Assembly: GCA_016783715.1 (NCBI GenBank)
Contig: JADHWA010000002.1
Coordinates: 1-49,694 of the forward strand
Direction: 5' to 3'
Length of the DNA: 49,694 bases
DNA from: Candidatus Omnitrophota bacterium
Lineage (GTDB): Bacteria > Omnitrophota > Gorgyraeia > Gygaellales > Profunditerraquicolaceae
The notes under the pieces were generated by a model that was given only the letters and a program-made list of their open reading frames with translations, was not told where the DNA came from and did not search any database. The translations under genes and the position numbers were made by a program. Shown in pieces: positions 3,928 through 38,346 of this stretch (position 1 is the stretch's first letter; every line of letters starts with the position of its first letter).

Positions 3928-5048
3928 GTATATATGCGCGGAACGCGGCTGCCTAAACCGCAGACGATCTCATAGGGAATTGTCTCTGCCAACTCTGCTA
4001 ACTCTTCGGCAGTAATCTTGCTTTTGCCCTGGCTGCCGATCAAAACTACTTCATCCCCTATCTTAACTTTTGCATCTCCAACGTCGACCATGATCTGATC
4101 CATGCAGACCCTTCCGCTGACTTTAAAACGCCTGCCACCTATCAGCACGCTGGCGATATTGGAGAGGTTGCGTGGATAGCCGTCTCCGTAACCTATGGGG
4201 AGAGTGGCTATCAATGTATCTCTCTTGGTAATATAGCTGTGGCCGTAGCTGATACCCTGGCCCTTTGGAACCCCCTTACAATATACAACTTTACTCTTTA
4301 AGCTCAATACCGGCTTTAATTTCAACTTTAACCCAGCCTTCGGATAAAGGCCATAAATCACCAGCCCCGGCCTGACCATATTAAAATGGCCGCGCTTGTA
4401 GTCGATTATCCCCATGCTGTTAGCACAATGAAGAAAGGGAGCTTTAATCCCTGAGGAGCTTAATTTTGAAATCAGGCGATTAAAAAGACTGATCTGATGC
4501 AGAGTAAATTTCCGGTCCATATCGGCAAAAGCAAAATGCGTAAAGATACCTTCAATAGAGATAAACTTCATCTTAGAGATCCTCTCTATCAGAGATTCGG
4601 CATCCAAAGGCATAACTCCGATCCTCCCCATCCCGGTATCGACTTTGACGTGAATATTGATCGGCCTCTTGTCTCTTGTGGCCTGTCTATTTAGAGAGCT
4701 GGCCAGCTCTTCGCTACAGACCGTCGGAACAAGACCATATTTAAAGAGCGGCTTGATATCTTCTTTAAGGATCATCCCTAAAACCAGAATCGGCAGATTA
4801 ATCCCGGCCTTCCTTAAAAGTATCCCTTCATCAATGGATGCAACGCCGAAATAGTCGGCACCGCAGAGGGCCAGTTTCGACGCCACCGGGATAAGGCCGT
4901 GTCCATATGCATCGGCCTTTACCGTCACCATTATCTTGGTCCGGGGAGCCAGCAATCTCTTAACCTGCTTGAAATTATAAAGTAGGTTCTCTAGATTCAC
5001 CTCTGCCCAAGTCGGCCTGTATCCTATGTATTTATGCTTTCCCATCAT
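3924..5048 (-). CDS. alr: alanine racemase
   Basis: 374 aa. PLP-lysine motif VKADAYGHG. C-terminal beta domain with the VCMDQIMVD motif. Confidence 0.9.
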   Translation of the reverse strand: MMGKHKYIGYRPTWAEVNLENLLYNFKQVKRLLAPRTKIMVTVKADAYGHGLIPVASKLALCGADYFGVASIDEGILLRKAGINLPILVLGMILKEDIKPLFKYGLVPTVCSEELASSLNRQATRDKRPINIHVKVDTGMGRIGVMPLDAESLIERISKMKFISIEGIFTHFAFADMDRKFTLHQISLFNRLISKLSSSGIKAPFLHCANSMGIIDYKRGHFNMVRPGLVIYGLYPKAGLKLKLKPVLSLKSKVVYCKGVPKGQGISYGHSYITKRDTLIATLPIGYGDGYPRNLSNIASVLIGGRRFKVSGRVCMDQIMVDVGDAKVKIGDEVVLIGSQGKSKITAEELAELAETIPYEIVCGLGSRVPRIYT

Positions 5049-5445
5049 GTCATTGCGAGGGCTTCAGCCCGAAGCAATCTCATCATATAAATCTCTAAAT
5101 TCCGGATTTATAATCTTTATCAATTTAATCTTCTTTTCCCTAGAACCACCTTTAATCTGCTTCTCGCGAGTAATTGCACTTTCAATATTGTCAGATACTT
5201 CGTAATATACTAATTTATTCACATTATATTTTTTACTAAATCCGTCTATCAATTTATGCTTGTGTTCGTATATCCTCTTTTGTAAATCACTGGTAACTCC
5301 CGTATAGATAACACTATTTCTCTTGTTCATCATTATGTACACATAACCTTGCTTATATTCTGTCATATTGTTTTTAGATTGCTTCCTGCTTCGGCTTTGC
5401 CTCGCAGTCGCAATGACGAAAGGGGTGGCGCTTCGCAATGACGAG
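5049..5445. mobile_element. GIY-YIG nuclease cassette bracketed by imperfect inverted repeats
   Basis: Left arm is GTCATTGCGAGGGCTTCAGCCCGAAGCAATC (5049-5079). Right arm is GATTGCTTCCTGCTTCGGCTTTGCCTCGCAGTCGCAATGAC (5377-5417). A second TCGCAATGACGA copy lies at 5432-5443. Confidence 0.5.
5064..5366 (-). CDS. GIY-YIG nuclease family protein
   Basis: MTEYKQGYVYIMMNKRNSVIYTGVTSDLQKRIYEHK is the GIY...YTG motif block. Start set at ATG 5366 because the longer ORF reads through the repeat arm. Confidence 0.8.
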   Translation of the reverse strand: MTEYKQGYVYIMMNKRNSVIYTGVTSDLQKRIYEHKHKLIDGFSKKYNVNKLVYYEVSDNIESAITREKQIKGGSREKKIKLIKIINPEFRDLYDEIASG

Positions 5446-20162: not shown

Positions 20163-20263
20163 TTCAATGAGCGCATAACTTACGCGACTGCCAAGGAGCG
20201 TAAGTTATAAGCGCGAATTGATCCCGAGCCTTCCTAATTTTTTTAAAGTAGAGGCTGGGGATC
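20163..20263. repeat. modular hairpin element, copy 1 (modules A+B)
   Basis: Module A is TTCAAT-GA-GCGC-ATAACTTACGC, loop, GCGTAAGTTAT-AA-GCGC-GA-ATTGA (20163-20221). Module B is GATCCCGAGCCT/AGGCTGGGGATC (20220-20263). Confidence 0.8.
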
Positions 20264-22249: not shown

Positions 22250-22261
22250 ATGATTCCTCCC

Positions 22262-22486
22262 TTCAATAAGCAGATAACTTACGGAGTGAAATGACGTAAG
22301 TTATAGTCCCGCCCTTTTGTTAAAATTTAGTTTATCAATCCGTCCCAGCCCAAAAGGGCGGGACGTCTGCGCATTGAACCCCCCACCACTTTTTAATAAA
22401 AGTCTAAAAATAAAATTAGCGATCTCTAATCTCTCTGTGTTTAATTCCCCTCGCCTACTCTTTCTCTAAAAAGTGGTGGGGGGTCA
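22262..22486. repeat. modular hairpin element, copy 2 (module A with inserted hairpin, plus long module B)
   Basis: TTCAAT at 22262 and ATTGAA ending at 22378. Inserted 14-bp hairpin at 22306-22364. 17-bp inverted repeat CCCCCCACCACTTTTTA at 22379-22395 and 22467-22483. Confidence 0.85.
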
Positions 22487-22487
22487 T

Positions 22488-23258
22488 TTAACTAACCTTC
22501 ATACCGCTCTCTATGGTCTCGGTTATCGGCCCTTGAGCCAATCCGTTTATAAACTGATGAACTACCGGATGAGGTGAATTCTGTATCTGGTCAACTGTGC
22601 CCTCACAGATAATCTTGCCGTGATACATCATGGCAATCCGGTCTGCGACCTTGTAGGCGCTCTTCATATCATGGGTGACCACGATTGAGGTAACTTTCAA
22701 CTTATCATGCAGGCTACGGATGAGTTCATTGATACTGGCTGCGGTTATCGGATCCACTCCGGTGGTTGGCTCATCATAGAGTATAAGATTTGGCTTAATG
22801 CATAGGGCCCTGGCCAGCGATACCCTCTTTTTCATCCCCCCGCTTAACTGCGAAGGCATCAGATTGGTAATTCCGTGTAAGTCCACCAGAGACAATGATT
22901 CTTCGATCCTCTCAAGCAGCTCATCTCTGCCGATATTAGTATGTTCGATCAGGCCAAAACCCACATTCTCACCCACGGTAAGCGAATCAAAAAGAGCGCC
23001 CCCCTGAAAGACATACCCCATCTTCAGTCGAAGGGCATTTAACTCCCGCTCCCCTAAGCCTGATAAGTCCTTGCCGTCAACCCTGACACTTCCTTTATCC
23101 GGCCTTAAGATACCCATGATGTGCTTAAGCATCACCGACTTCCCGCAGCCGGAACGTCCGATAATCACGCATGTAGATCCACTATCAATCTTCAGGCTTA
23201 ATTCATTCAAAACCCTGTGACTACCGAAATTCTTAACTAATCCCTGGATCTCTATCAT
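22488..23258 (-). CDS. mlaF: ABC transporter ATP-binding protein (MlaF type)
   Basis: Walker A GRSGCGKS, signature LSGGMKKR, Walker B ILYDEP. Confidence 0.85.
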   Translation of the reverse strand: MIEIQGLVKNFGSHRVLNELSLKIDSGSTCVIIGRSGCGKSVMLKHIMGILRPDKGSVRVDGKDLSGLGERELNALRLKMGYVFQGGALFDSLTVGENVGFGLIEHTNIGRDELLERIEESLSLVDLHGITNLMPSQLSGGMKKRVSLARALCIKPNLILYDEPTTGVDPITAASINELIRSLHDKLKVTSIVVTHDMKSAYKVADRIAMMYHGKIICEGTVDQIQNSPHPVVHQFINGLAQGPITETIESGMKVS

Positions 23259-32388: not shown

Positions 32389-32536
32389 TCAAGTAATTGA
32401 GGAATTGAGGTGTTTTTCCACACCCCCTCATCCTGAGGAGCGAAGCGACGAAGGATCTCATGAGATCCTTTAGCCCTTCGGGCTTCAGGATGACCAGTCG
32501 GGGATAATAAAAAACTCCCCGACTGGTCAAGTAATT
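32389..32536. mobile_element. MITE-like triple-hairpin insertion flanked by a 10-bp direct repeat TCAAGTAATT
   Basis: Direct repeats at 32389-32398 and 32527-32536. Internal hairpins at 32409-32424, 32429-32492 (64-nt palindrome) and 32494-32526 (11-bp stem). Confidence 0.5.
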
Positions 32537-33618: not shown

Positions 33619-33834
33619 TTCAATGAACACATAATTTACGATCCGCCGCAGGCGGAGAGTAAATTATATGTGTGAATTGAACCCCCCACCACTTTTTAAT
33701 AAAAGTCTAAAAAATAAAATTAACGATACAACTAACTACTTTATATTAAATAAATCCCGCCACCCACTCCTTCTCTAAAAAGTGGTGGGGGGTCAAATTC
33801 GGCCATCGAACTTACGTTACCGTAAGTTCGGGCC
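33619..33834. repeat. modular hairpin element, copy 3 (modules A+B+C)
   Basis: Module A at 33619-33681. Module B is the 17-bp inverted repeat at 33682-33698 and 33776-33792. AAATTCGG at 33795-33802. Module C hairpin at 33801-33834. Confidence 0.85.
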
Positions 33835-34245
33835 TCATTTGACTGTTCCCTTGACCACAAACTTTGATATGGGCTCTTCTGGATCGTCGGTAATCACATA
33901 GATGTGCTGCTTGACCACCCCGGAATACCCCTTACTGTTAAACTTCACATCTAAAGAGGTGCTCTCGCCGACAGAAAGCAAGCGCTTCTTGACATCAGAA
34001 ACCGTACAGCCGCAGCTTGTATTTACATCCTTGACCTGGAGATCTCTCTCTGTTGTGTTCTTAAATATAAACTCATGCTTTAATACATCCCCCTCCCTTA
34101 CCTGGCCAAAATCCCAGAAGTCAGCGATATCTGAGAGAGGCGAGGGACTGGTAGGCAGGGACTTCTGTCCCCCGGCACAACCGAAAAACAGACAACTTAT
34201 CATCGCTATTAATATAACTGAGACCTGCGGTCTGCCTAACATCAA
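33835..34245 (-). CDS. DUF1573 domain protein (probable lipoprotein)
   Basis: Lipobox-like LFFGCAG. DFGQV...G....H.F.F.N......V..SCGCT is the DUF1573 signature. Confidence 0.8.
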   Translation of the reverse strand: MMLGRPQVSVILIAMISCLFFGCAGGQKSLPTSPSPLSDIADFWDFGQVREGDVLKHEFIFKNTTERDLQVKDVNTSCGCTVSDVKKRLLSVGESTSLDVKFNSKGYSGVVKQHIYVITDDPEEPISKFVVKGTVK

Positions 34246-38093: not shown

Positions 38094-38309
38094 TTCAATA
38101 AGCACATCACTTAGCGAGTGCTAACGAAGCTAAGTGATAAGTGCGCATTGAACCCTGCACCCAAACAAGTAACAGTAGATACAAAACTGGGTGCGGGGTA
38201 AATTCGGGCACGGCCCATGGCTTACGTCATTTTCCCGCCAATCATTTACTTGTATCGCGGGATCCCGCCTCGATTCTATTTAGAATGGCGGGACATTCCG
38301 TAAGTCATG
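38094..38309. repeat. modular hairpin element, copy 4 (modules A+B+extended C)
   Basis: Module A at 38094-38152. Module B at 38152-38163 and 38188-38199. AAATTCGG at 38200-38207. Module C outer stem at 38216-38226 and 38299-38309, enclosing TCCCGCC/GGCGGGA and the palindrome GCGGGATCCCGC. Confidence 0.8.
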
Positions 38310-38318
38310 CCCTCACTT

Positions 38319-38346
38319 ATGATAATATAAATGCGCGATAATTCAA
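38319..38346 (-). promoter_or_regulatory. candidate promoter upstream of element copy 4 and the HD-GYP gene
   Basis: Minus strand reads TTGAAT (38346-38341), 16 nt, TATCAT (38324-38319). Confidence 0.35.

Follow-up and report, generated by a model that had tools for sequence, protein, structure and literature searches.

Operon-internal hairpin repeats of Omnitrophota as probable gene-less copies of a composite DNA element with a small GIY-YIG nuclease gene

Introduction

Ssn proteins are single-domain GIY-YIG nucleases of ~94 aa (Chenal et al. 2025, Nat Commun 16:2388, PMC11893778). They bind directional hairpin repeats, termed NTS or SRM, and cut only the adjacent single-stranded DNA (ssDNA), leaving the reverse strand, double-stranded DNA and RNA uncut (PMC11893778). 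The ssn genes are flanked by these repeats in an arrangement that the authors called identical to that of an insertion sequence (IS), and the repeats occur in hundreds of intergenic copies (PMC11893778). In N. meningitidis, the NTS/SsnA pair modulates natural transformation and was proposed to be a domesticated IS-like element; whether the repeat-gene-repeat unit is mobile, and what role it plays outside Neisseria, was left open (PMC11893778). Here, a family of hairpin repeats is described from 49,694 nt of Candidatus Omnitrophota bacterium DNA (GenBank assembly GCA_016783715.1, contig JADHWA010000002.1, positions 1 to 49,694), called the window throughout. The complete element consists of two hairpins of ~58 nt, A' and A, on either side of a third hairpin, B, the loop of which can hold the gene for a GIY-YIG nuclease of 75-80 aa.

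On balance, we favour the reading that the window features are copies lacking the nuclease open reading frame (ORF), similar in kind to miniature inverted-repeat transposable elements (MITEs), of a composite DNA repeat element of Omnitrophota, and we infer that this element may be mobile and recognized by the nuclease. Among known systems, the Ssn nuclease/SRM pairing is the closest, by shared architecture and strand-specific logic, with REP/RAYT as an analogue. As in the Ssn system, a small single-domain GIY-YIG gene has hairpin repeats on both sides in an IS-like arrangement; the repeats are multicopy, directional and intergenic, far outnumber the gene, and display strand-specific features consistent with recognition of ssDNA. 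In contrast to SRM repeats of 20-50 nt, however, the present hairpins measure ~58 nt and have the unrelated sequence TTCAAT-GA-stem-GA..GA-stem-GA-ATTGA, a third hairpin (B) brackets the gene, and the protein falls short of SsnA by roughly one fifth of its length. Neither this host phylum nor the exact placement between stop codon and Shine-Dalgarno (SD) motif inside essential operons is described in the published account (PMC11893778).

Results

Architecture of the element and its copies in the window

An earlier note, made from the letters of the window alone, had claimed that four gaps between co-directional genes share one hairpin architecture, named module A. The four hairpins were found at the same coordinates, running on the + strand from TTCAAT to ATTGA at 20163-20221, 22262-22377, 33619-33680 and 38094-38151, a density of four elements per 49.7 kb. 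The 20-nt degenerate pattern TTCAATRANCNNATNAYTTA, taken from the 5' half of module A, matches the window at those four sites exclusively, compared with 0.00 matches expected by chance (100 shuffles). By Pfam, the flanking pairs are RadA and a PIN-TRAM protein (YacL-like), MlaF and MlaD, DUF1573 and an M48 peptidase (HtpX), and OtsB and HD-GYP, which bears out the assignment of the gaps to radA-yacL, mlaF-mlaD, DUF1573-htpX and otsB-HD-GYP.

A further hairpin, module C, had been described for copies 3 and 4. It exists in both, but what it is had been missed: R1, a covariance model built from 12 module-A copies, matches it on the opposite strand in each case (Table 1). Module C is thus a diverged copy of module A in inverted orientation, which makes the unit A', B hairpin, A. 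Over the collected loci (L numbers below), which were mostly selected for containing a copy, R1 detected 203 non-overlapping hairpins. Among the collected loci there are 61 convergent A/A' doublets (+ then -) with spacers of 25-268 nt and no divergent ones, and in 100-121 of 125 copies the hairpin is followed by CCC. On the operon's sense strand, the order of parts in a complete element is the upstream stop codon, A', the 5' arm of B, the nuclease gene, the 3' arm of B, A, and then the SD and start codon of the next gene. The nuclease gene, of 75-80 codons and encoding a single GIY-YIG domain, lies within the B loop. On this strand the 5' arm of B always begins with CCC and the 3' arm always finishes with GGG. 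Most copies, including all four in the window, are without the nuclease gene, whereby B collapses to a plain hairpin. The outer boxes of A' are, for example, TCAAAT/ATTTGA or xTAAGT/ACTTAx and those of A are TTCAAT/ATTGAA; within one element A' and A differ in stem sequence, and each folds separately. B stems fall into at least six families, including CCCCACACCCAG, CCCTTGACATTTT, CCCAGCACTAATTTT, CCCGCCCTTTTGG and CCCCCCACCACTTTTT. The possibility that the ~100-nt cores of B are remnants of the nuclease ORF was considered and is unsupported, there being no sequence conservation beyond the stems.

Table 1. Parts of the four element copies in the window and the evidence for each (the GA strand is the favoured strand described in the text)
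Feature	Position	Strand	Evidence and remarks
Copy 1, hairpin A (right end)	20163-20221	+ (GA strand)	R1 78.5 bits; DNA fold -17.7 kcal/mol, z -5.9
Copy 1, imperfect B hairpin TCCCGAGCCTTCC..GGAGGCTGGGGA	20222-20261	unstranded	sequence
Copy 2, hairpin A	22262-22377	+	R1 22.6 bits across the insert; nested hairpin splits A at the bulge
Copy 2, nested B-type hairpin GTCCCGCCCTTTTG / CAAAAGGGCGGGAC	22306-22364	unstranded	inverted repeat, 14 bp, 100% complementary
Copy 2, B hairpin	22378-22483	unstranded	17-bp stem CCCCCCACCACTTTTTA, AT-rich core, no ORF
Copy 2, A' remnant	22484-22490	-	outer left box TAAATGA as sole survivor; compared with L021
Copy 3, hairpin A	33619-33681	+	R1 67.1 bits; DNA fold -18.4 kcal/mol, z -7.5
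Copy 3, B hairpin	33682-33792	unstranded	same stem family as copy 2 B
Copy 3, hairpin A' (earlier module C)	33793-33842	- (sense; GA strand)	R1 33789-33852(-), 39 bits, E 8e-6; fold
Copy 4, hairpin A	38094-38152	+	R1 73.3 bits; fold; rare AA/GC internal-loop variant
Copy 4, short B hairpin CCCTGCACCCAAAC..GGGTGCGGGG	38153-38198	unstranded	sequence
Copy 4, hairpin A' (earlier module C)	38199-38320	-	R1 38194-38330(-), 26.5 bits

The four window copies are complete to different degrees, as displayed in Table 1. In copy 1, hairpin A lies directly beside the SD and start codon, in reverse complement, of the yacL-like gene, B ends at most 2 nt from the stop codon of radA, and there is no A'. In copy 2, folding of 22250-22490 reproduces the structure that had been proposed for it: module A forms a three-way junction around a perfect 14-bp insert (22306-22319 / 22351-22364), followed by the 17-bp B stem, with a z-score of -7.8 to -8.1 on either strand. 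The insert nested within A is a B-type stem of the CCCGCCCTTTTG family; its CCCGCCCTTTTGG stem family also occurs in the B modules of L031 and L089. The TAA of the surviving A' box is the stop codon of mlaF, and the full A' is retained at the same mlaF-mlaD junction in L021. Copy 3 has its hairpin A next to GGGGG and the TTG with which the M48 peptidase gene (htpX) starts, and the TGA in the A' box TCAAATGA of this copy is the stop codon of DUF1573 (ORF end at 33835). The B modules of copies 2 and 3 had been described as alike, and they share 82% identity over 115 nt. In copy 4, the apical loop of A' holds a nested CCCGCC..GGCGGG hairpin (~38231-38296), an insert that is missing from the orthologous copy in L154.

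A small GIY-YIG nuclease gene in the B loop

Three doublets with a "spacer" of 261-268 nt contain an ORF of 75-80 codons in the B loop, the product of which matches Pfam GIY-YIG (PF01541) with E 1.6e-12 over residues 1-61 of 75. By tblastn, a GIY-YIG ORF was located between A' and A in L055, L076, L104, L116, L126 and L128, while the contig of L071 ends upstream of the ORF and A alone is visible. ORF-bearing copies have A' upstream and A downstream in 9 of 10 cases, the tenth being L071. Three of these nine were sampled from the protein side, as family members on long contigs chosen without regard to hairpins, and all three are flanked by A' and A. They lie co-directionally in core operons (rpsD-rpoA, leuC-leuD and pyrB-pyrC), with B stems at the ends of the ORF. 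All protein-coding genes seen between A' and A are this GIY-YIG gene.

The 76-aa family comprises at least 210 clusters at 90% identity, the named ones being "GIY-YIG nuclease family protein" of Omnitrophota, and many of its genes sit on very short contigs (0.5-1 kb). Of the catalytic residues, Tyr, Tyr, Gly, Arg and Glu never vary, and His is almost invariant. Between two nuclease copies dN/dS is 0.074, and the gene is under strong purifying selection. The AlphaFold model (pLDDT 91) has a beta-beta-alpha-beta-alpha fold, with best PDB matches to 1ZG2 (UPF0213), Slx1 and the I-TevI catalytic domain. Among the genes of the window and those between A' and A, there is no RAYT, no IS200/IS605 (Y1/HUH) transposase and no integrase. 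The earlier note had offered three possible roles for the hairpins, and that of a substrate for a hairpin-recognizing enzyme of a mobile element comes closest; the partner gene found is a GIY-YIG gene, however, and not one for a RAYT, TnpA or tyrosine recombinase.

Other GIY-YIG genes were encountered in these data. Between alr and tsaB, the window contains a 100-aa GIY-YIG gene (5064-5366(-); Pfam E 6e-17), and inverted CGTCATTGCGA..GCAATC hairpins flank it (5047-5079 and 5377-5418, with a partial one at 5431-5443). These hairpins keep the CGTC-ATT..AAT-C frame of the Neisseria NTS, with the strict SRM regular expression unmatched, and the unit at 5047-5443 is probably a canonical Ssn/SRM unit. 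The gap between htpX and an aminoacyl-tRNA synthetase gene contains two head-to-head TCATCCTGA..AGGATCTCA hairpins (32428-32493) and a perfect 14-bp hairpin (32491-32529), and these look like another type of SRM-like repeat, here without an intervening gene. More distantly related GIY-YIG minigenes, at 30-40% identity, stand beside tRNA genes in L100 (767-1006) and L013 (5857-6054), flanked by hairpins other than A/A'. In L148 (19169-19465), a 98-aa GIY-YIG gene of a different subfamily is embedded in an operon between argD and argF, with a 4-nt overlap with each and no flanking A hairpins.

Orthologous junctions and turnover of the copies

Orthologous junctions, named in the earlier note as a means of checking the family, were compared in relatives fetched by means of RadA and HD-GYP homologues. 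It can be observed that all four window junctions are empty in contigs with proteins 81-87% identical (RadA 87% in L022/L023, RadA 81% in L024, HD-GYP 85% in L153), while the three testable junctions are filled in contigs at 94% identity. Without an element, the mlaF-mlaD junction of L022/L023 reads TAA-AA-GGGAGG-7 nt-ATG, and the gap there and in L024 is 15-24 nt; at radA-yacL of the same loci the SD lies within the end of radA, with a stop-start gap of 3-4 nt. In L153, the otsB-HD-GYP junction has the left flank of the window followed by an unrelated native spacer, and the DUF1573-htpX gap is ~39 nt. As regards the filled sites, L021 (94%) has a full A'-B-A at mlaF-mlaD and A'-B after radA, and L154 (94%) has A'-B-A at otsB-HD-GYP.

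The shared copies have diverged much faster than the genes, with a B module of another family or size at orthologous sites: B is 16 nt in L154, and L021 has the stem CCCCCACACCAATTGG where the window has CCCCCCACCACTTTTT at the same site. Furthermore, A' has been lost in window copy 2 and nested hairpins have been gained or eroded, those of B type being located within A (copy 2) and within A' (copy 4). Presence or absence together with rapid turnover is the behaviour of DNA that is inserted and turns over, rather than that of a regulatory site under conservation. The SD beside A may be derived from the host or borne by the element: GGGAGG is already present in the empty mlaF-mlaD site, and the SD looks duplicated at radA-yacL.

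Loci L001-L007, 99.4-100% identical to the window, were rejected as evidence for presence or absence. Their 100-nt "insertions", unaligned to the window (L001 5891-5990 and 13206-13305; L002 4887-4986; L003 5505-5604 and 7326-7425), are read as scaffold gaps because they coincide with ~55-nt overlaps in window coordinates. Such 100-nt scaffold gaps in ENA metagenome assemblies mimic insertions in gene tables.

Spread and covariation

Homologues of the RadA and HD-GYP proteins carry the name Candidatus Omnitrophota and place the window in that group. A loose module-A pattern, in which stem 2 and several positions of stem 3 were left free, was scanned over one genome per GTDB species and gave 13 loci with 9 true hairpins, seven of them in Omnitrophota-labelled metagenome-assembled genomes (MAGs), one in an "uncultured bacterium" MAG and one in a Planctomycetales-labelled MAG. 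In every true match the positions left free are complementary. A further scan by pattern, over JGI metagenomes, gave at least 120 loci.

The compensatory stem changes that had been read from the four window copies are borne out on a far larger sample. Among the 12 copies of R1 there are 8 covarying pairs with double changes, and 95.8% of the stem cells are paired, against at most 37.5% after the 3' partners were slid. For 122 distinct copies, covariation is seen at 16 of the 20 pairs, and there are 409 compensatory cells, whereas shuffles give an expectation of 103. Covariation thus extends far past the window, in agreement with the selection on structure proposed from it. Two details fared differently. 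The bulge, described as a constant 2 nt, is 1-2 nt across the family, and the AA/GC internal loop, which does replace GA/GA in copies 2 and 4 as described, is rare in the family, GA/GA being present in 94-100% of copies.

No match at gathering scores was obtained with Rfam 15, either over the whole window or in the ORF-bearing loci; at E up to 1, the elements hit only plant miRNA-precursor models, which are generic long-hairpin models, far under gathering scores. The literature searched under GIY-YIG repeat, UPF0213/YhbQ, Omnitrophota-repeat and double-hairpin topics gave no description of this family. It is a genuine modular repeat family with selection on hairpin structure, previously undescribed as far as Rfam and the searchable literature show, as had been suspected, and not a new category.

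Strand-specific features of the hairpins

Tandem sheared G-A pairs and GNA/GNRA loops stabilize folded single strands, and features of this kind are distributed unequally between the two strands of the present hairpins. The 2x2 internal loop beside the outer box is GA/GA in 118-125 of 125 copies. The second loop, under the apex, is GA..GA or GA..AA (118 and 123 of 169), the inner loop beginning with GA in 118 of 169 copies, and apical loops of the G..A kind (GAA, GATA, GTAA, GAAA, GCA) number 52 against 9 of the complementary T..C kind. A DNA energy model gives the GA strand an advantage in stability of 0.8-1.5 kcal/mol over its complement. For A' this favoured strand is the sense one and for A the antisense one, so that the element is two-fold symmetric about B. 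With opposite favoured strands, no single transcript has both hairpins in the favoured form, whereas two ends of a DNA element, with a different strand read at each, would.

Wobble pairs were counted in 2306 stem cells, of which 2233 are Watson-Crick, 22 are G:T and 14 are A:C. As an A:C cell is a wobble pair on the other strand, wobble amounts to ~1% with no strand bias. The strand-specific loops and the rare, unbiased wobble fit folded ssDNA rather than mRNA structure. Effects on the co-transcribed mRNA are likely, but secondary. An intrinsic-terminator reading was rejected, no terminator-like site having been found at copies 1 and 2, the sole region scanned.

Placement between stop codon and Shine-Dalgarno motif

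Of 117 TTCAAT-type hairpins with sufficient flank, 89 (76%) face a gene start on the other strand and none adjoins a gene end alone. The start codon is mostly 10-13 nt past ATTGAA, with an SD-like motif at most 3 nt away in 61 of the 117. A'-type hairpins adjoin gene ends, and in many cases a TAA or TGA within the box serves as the stop codon, copy 2 (mlaF) and copy 3 (DUF1573) being examples. Only a few nucleotides separate stop codon and SD in these genomes, so any tolerated insertion touches both, and the placement may be due either to targeting or to survivorship. At ~10 loci a predicted ATG stands 0-1 nt after ..TCATTGAA with no SD (right ends in L126, L129, L130, L107, L053, L139 and L109); these are either wrong start predictions or cases of initiation directly behind a stable hairpin.

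Discussion

Comparison with other repeats and mobile genes

Like the REP, BIME and REPIN sequences treated in PMC2817692 and PMC3116915, the present repeats are numerous intergenic imperfect palindromes in inverted pairs with compensatory stem evolution, and, as in REP/RAYT systems, one associated gene is flanked by repeats with no target-site duplication. REP sequences are 20-40 nt long with a conserved 5' tetranucleotide head of GTAG type, RAYT is a Y1 HUH transposase, and REPINs are paired inverted REPs that form one long hairpin. Here, by contrast, the hairpins are ~58 nt with a TTCAAT-GA head, the flanked gene is a GIY-YIG gene, and A' and A do not pair together. The location between stop codon and SD in one fixed polarity is a further difference from REP/BIME.

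Correia/NEMIS, ERIC and BOX (boxA-boxB-boxC) sequences are short, non-autonomous modular repeats with terminal inverted repeats that lie in transcribed intergenic spacers and can form RNA hairpins. The present element shares these features and is likewise operon-internal. Unlike the Correia, ERIC and BOX MITEs, it ends in 58-nt hairpins with strand-specific features and shows no target-site duplication. Inverted-repeat ends are shared with MITEs derived from DDE insertion sequences, but a duplication of fixed length is not seen and the ORF form encodes a nuclease instead of a DDE transposase. Free-standing GIY-YIG homing endonuclease genes of the phage T4 Seg type sit between conserved genes, with presence or absence among close relatives. 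The present GIY-YIG gene is similar in both respects, and copying into empty sites by way of a break is plausible; in contrast to the Seg type, the nuclease has no DNA-binding domain, and the element, a hairpin scaffold around the gene, is multicopy within a genome, with most copies gene-less.

Proposed mechanism and the points that weigh against it

By the Ssn/SRM precedent, A' and A may be directional recognition sites of a cognate mini-nuclease. In such a mechanism, the top strand would carry A' and the bottom strand A, each folded as an ssDNA hairpin, and the nuclease would nick at or beside both, on opposite strands. Repair or replication from the nicks could then copy the element, or the core of B and nuclease gene, into new or gene-less sites. 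Selection would spare only those insertions that lie between a stop codon and the next SD in tightly packed operons, and survival of these insertions alone would explain both the exact placement and the fixed orientation. We infer the mobility of the element from sequence comparisons. A bolder proposal is that mobility depends on no enzyme other than the 76-aa GIY-YIG protein, and that the element represents a mechanistically new class of prokaryotic transposable element, one with opposite-strand ssDNA hairpin ends, no duplication, MITE-like derivatives and a specialization for stop/SD sites; this is offered tentatively and seems rather doubtful.

Several points weigh against gene-less copies of a nuclease-dependent mobile element. 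The SRM motif HGTCWYN(0-2)YYVSBRHN(0-5)WNVSBRGN(0-2)RNCYNB has 0 matches on both strands of the window. The 76-aa protein is 34% identical to the Ssn-like 100-aa GIY-YIG protein of the window (E 6e-9) and its best PDB match is the UPF0213 protein 1ZG2; it may belong to cd10448 (Ssn) or to cd10456 (UPF0213). The window itself is without the 76-aa nuclease gene, and a cognate enzyme in this genome is an assumption. Recognition could also concern the B stems instead of A/A', or neither. For target-site duplications of k = 2-6 in 58 doublets, flank identity is no commoner than in shuffled pairings; GGAGG flanks both sides in a few copies (L040, L052), overall at chance level. No transposition or homing event was directly observed, and the copy number per genome is an extrapolation, at ~1 element per 10-12 kb, from loci mostly picked for a copy. 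Finally, a selected role at the RNA level would also agree with the strong bias in orientation and with the SD contact.

Alternative explanations

A domesticated host function in the manner of the Neisseria NTS/SsnA pair is unlikely, although not far-fetched. The hairpins would mark the chromosome and the mini-nuclease would cut incoming or exposed ssDNA that bears them; transformation or recombination around the flanked genes would be modulated, and the spread of the repeats would be a side effect. The modulation of natural transformation in N. meningitidis and the IS-like domestication proposed there (PMC11893778) give the precedent, and strong purifying selection on the nuclease, an old family widespread in the phylum, and the NTS-like Ssn gene with CGTCATT..AATC hairpins in the same window all agree with it. 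The quick turnover of copies between relatives at 85-94% identity, with swapped B modules, looks selfish rather than maintained, however, and the elements lie inside essential operons rather than around particular gene classes. Quite unlikely, too, is an intercistronic RNA module in which the hairpins control processing, stability or translation of the downstream cistron, which the earlier note had also offered as a role. The element is always operon-internal and co-directional, the distance from A to an SD-like motif is 0-3 nt for 61 of 117 hairpins, 76% of A hairpins face a start codon, the RNA folds are very stable, and the sense strand of A' has RNA-friendly tandem GA loops and GNRA-like loops. 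Against these stand the same junctions in close relatives, which are empty with stop codon and SD adjacent, the ~1% wobble without sense-strand bias, the GA loops and G..A apical loops of A on the antisense strand, and the absence of any Rfam match and of terminator-like sites at the scanned copies 1 and 2. As a primary role, the RNA module is not supported.

It is very improbable that the hairpins are a REP/BIME- or REPIN-type family moved by a RAYT or an IS200/IS605-type HUH transposase located elsewhere, with the GIY-YIG gene as an unrelated homing passenger. The inverted hairpin doublets with their spacer do resemble BIMEs and REPINs, target-site duplications are missing as in HUH elements, the strand-specific hairpin features suggest recognition of ssDNA, and B modules are separable units with or without the ORF. 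But the hairpins of HUH elements are both on one strand and here they are on opposite strands, the 58-nt hairpins have no GTAG-type head, every protein-coding gene seen between A' and A is GIY-YIG, and within the scope given above no Y1/HUH transposase was found. An attC-like folded recombination site of an integron-type system had likewise been suggested, from the outer boxes, unpaired spacers, extrahelical bases and variable terminal structure. In contrast to attC sites, which have RYYYAAC/GTTRRRY boxes, IntI and cassettes, the boxes are TTCAAT/ATTGAA, the flanking genes are conserved housekeeping operon genes in conserved order, the elements occur in inverted pairs and the window has no integrase, and the attC reading is effectively refuted.

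Implications

Comparative evidence from this family bears directly on the question of Ssn mobility: orthologous sites occur with and without an element, copies with and without the gene, and modules in nested or exchanged form. If the 76-aa protein were indeed the sole mobility enzyme, Ssn-type nuclease/hairpin pairs would generally be active mobile elements and not merely host tools. The family provides a new, well-defined 58-nt hairpin with a covariance model, and a candidate new enzyme/site pair for ssDNA tools. For annotation, it should be noted that the A' box encloses some of the stop codons, and hence the C-terminal ends encoded by the upstream genes, and genome annotation of Omnitrophota should mask the family. 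Omnitrophota assemblies probably break at operon junctions owing to these repeats, because several loci end at a copy and many nuclease genes sit on contigs of 0.5-1 kb.

Other inverted repeats

A long imperfect palindrome of TAAACCCTAAA/TTTAGGGTTTA-like units was observed in L021 (2357-2524 and 4967-5175) and L022 (2724-2884). It fills the gaps between the ABC ATPase and aminotransferase genes and between McsB and ClpC in these close relatives, where the window has 16-20 nt, and it looks like a second inserted hairpin-repeat family of the same lineage. In the window, an inverted repeat at 868-1005 with CCCTTGTCAATT / AATTGACAAAGGG, which resembles the CCCTTGACA B-stem family, separates two phosphoribosyltransferase-domain genes (299-859, - strand; 1000-1737, + strand) and is possibly a B-type hairpin standing alone.

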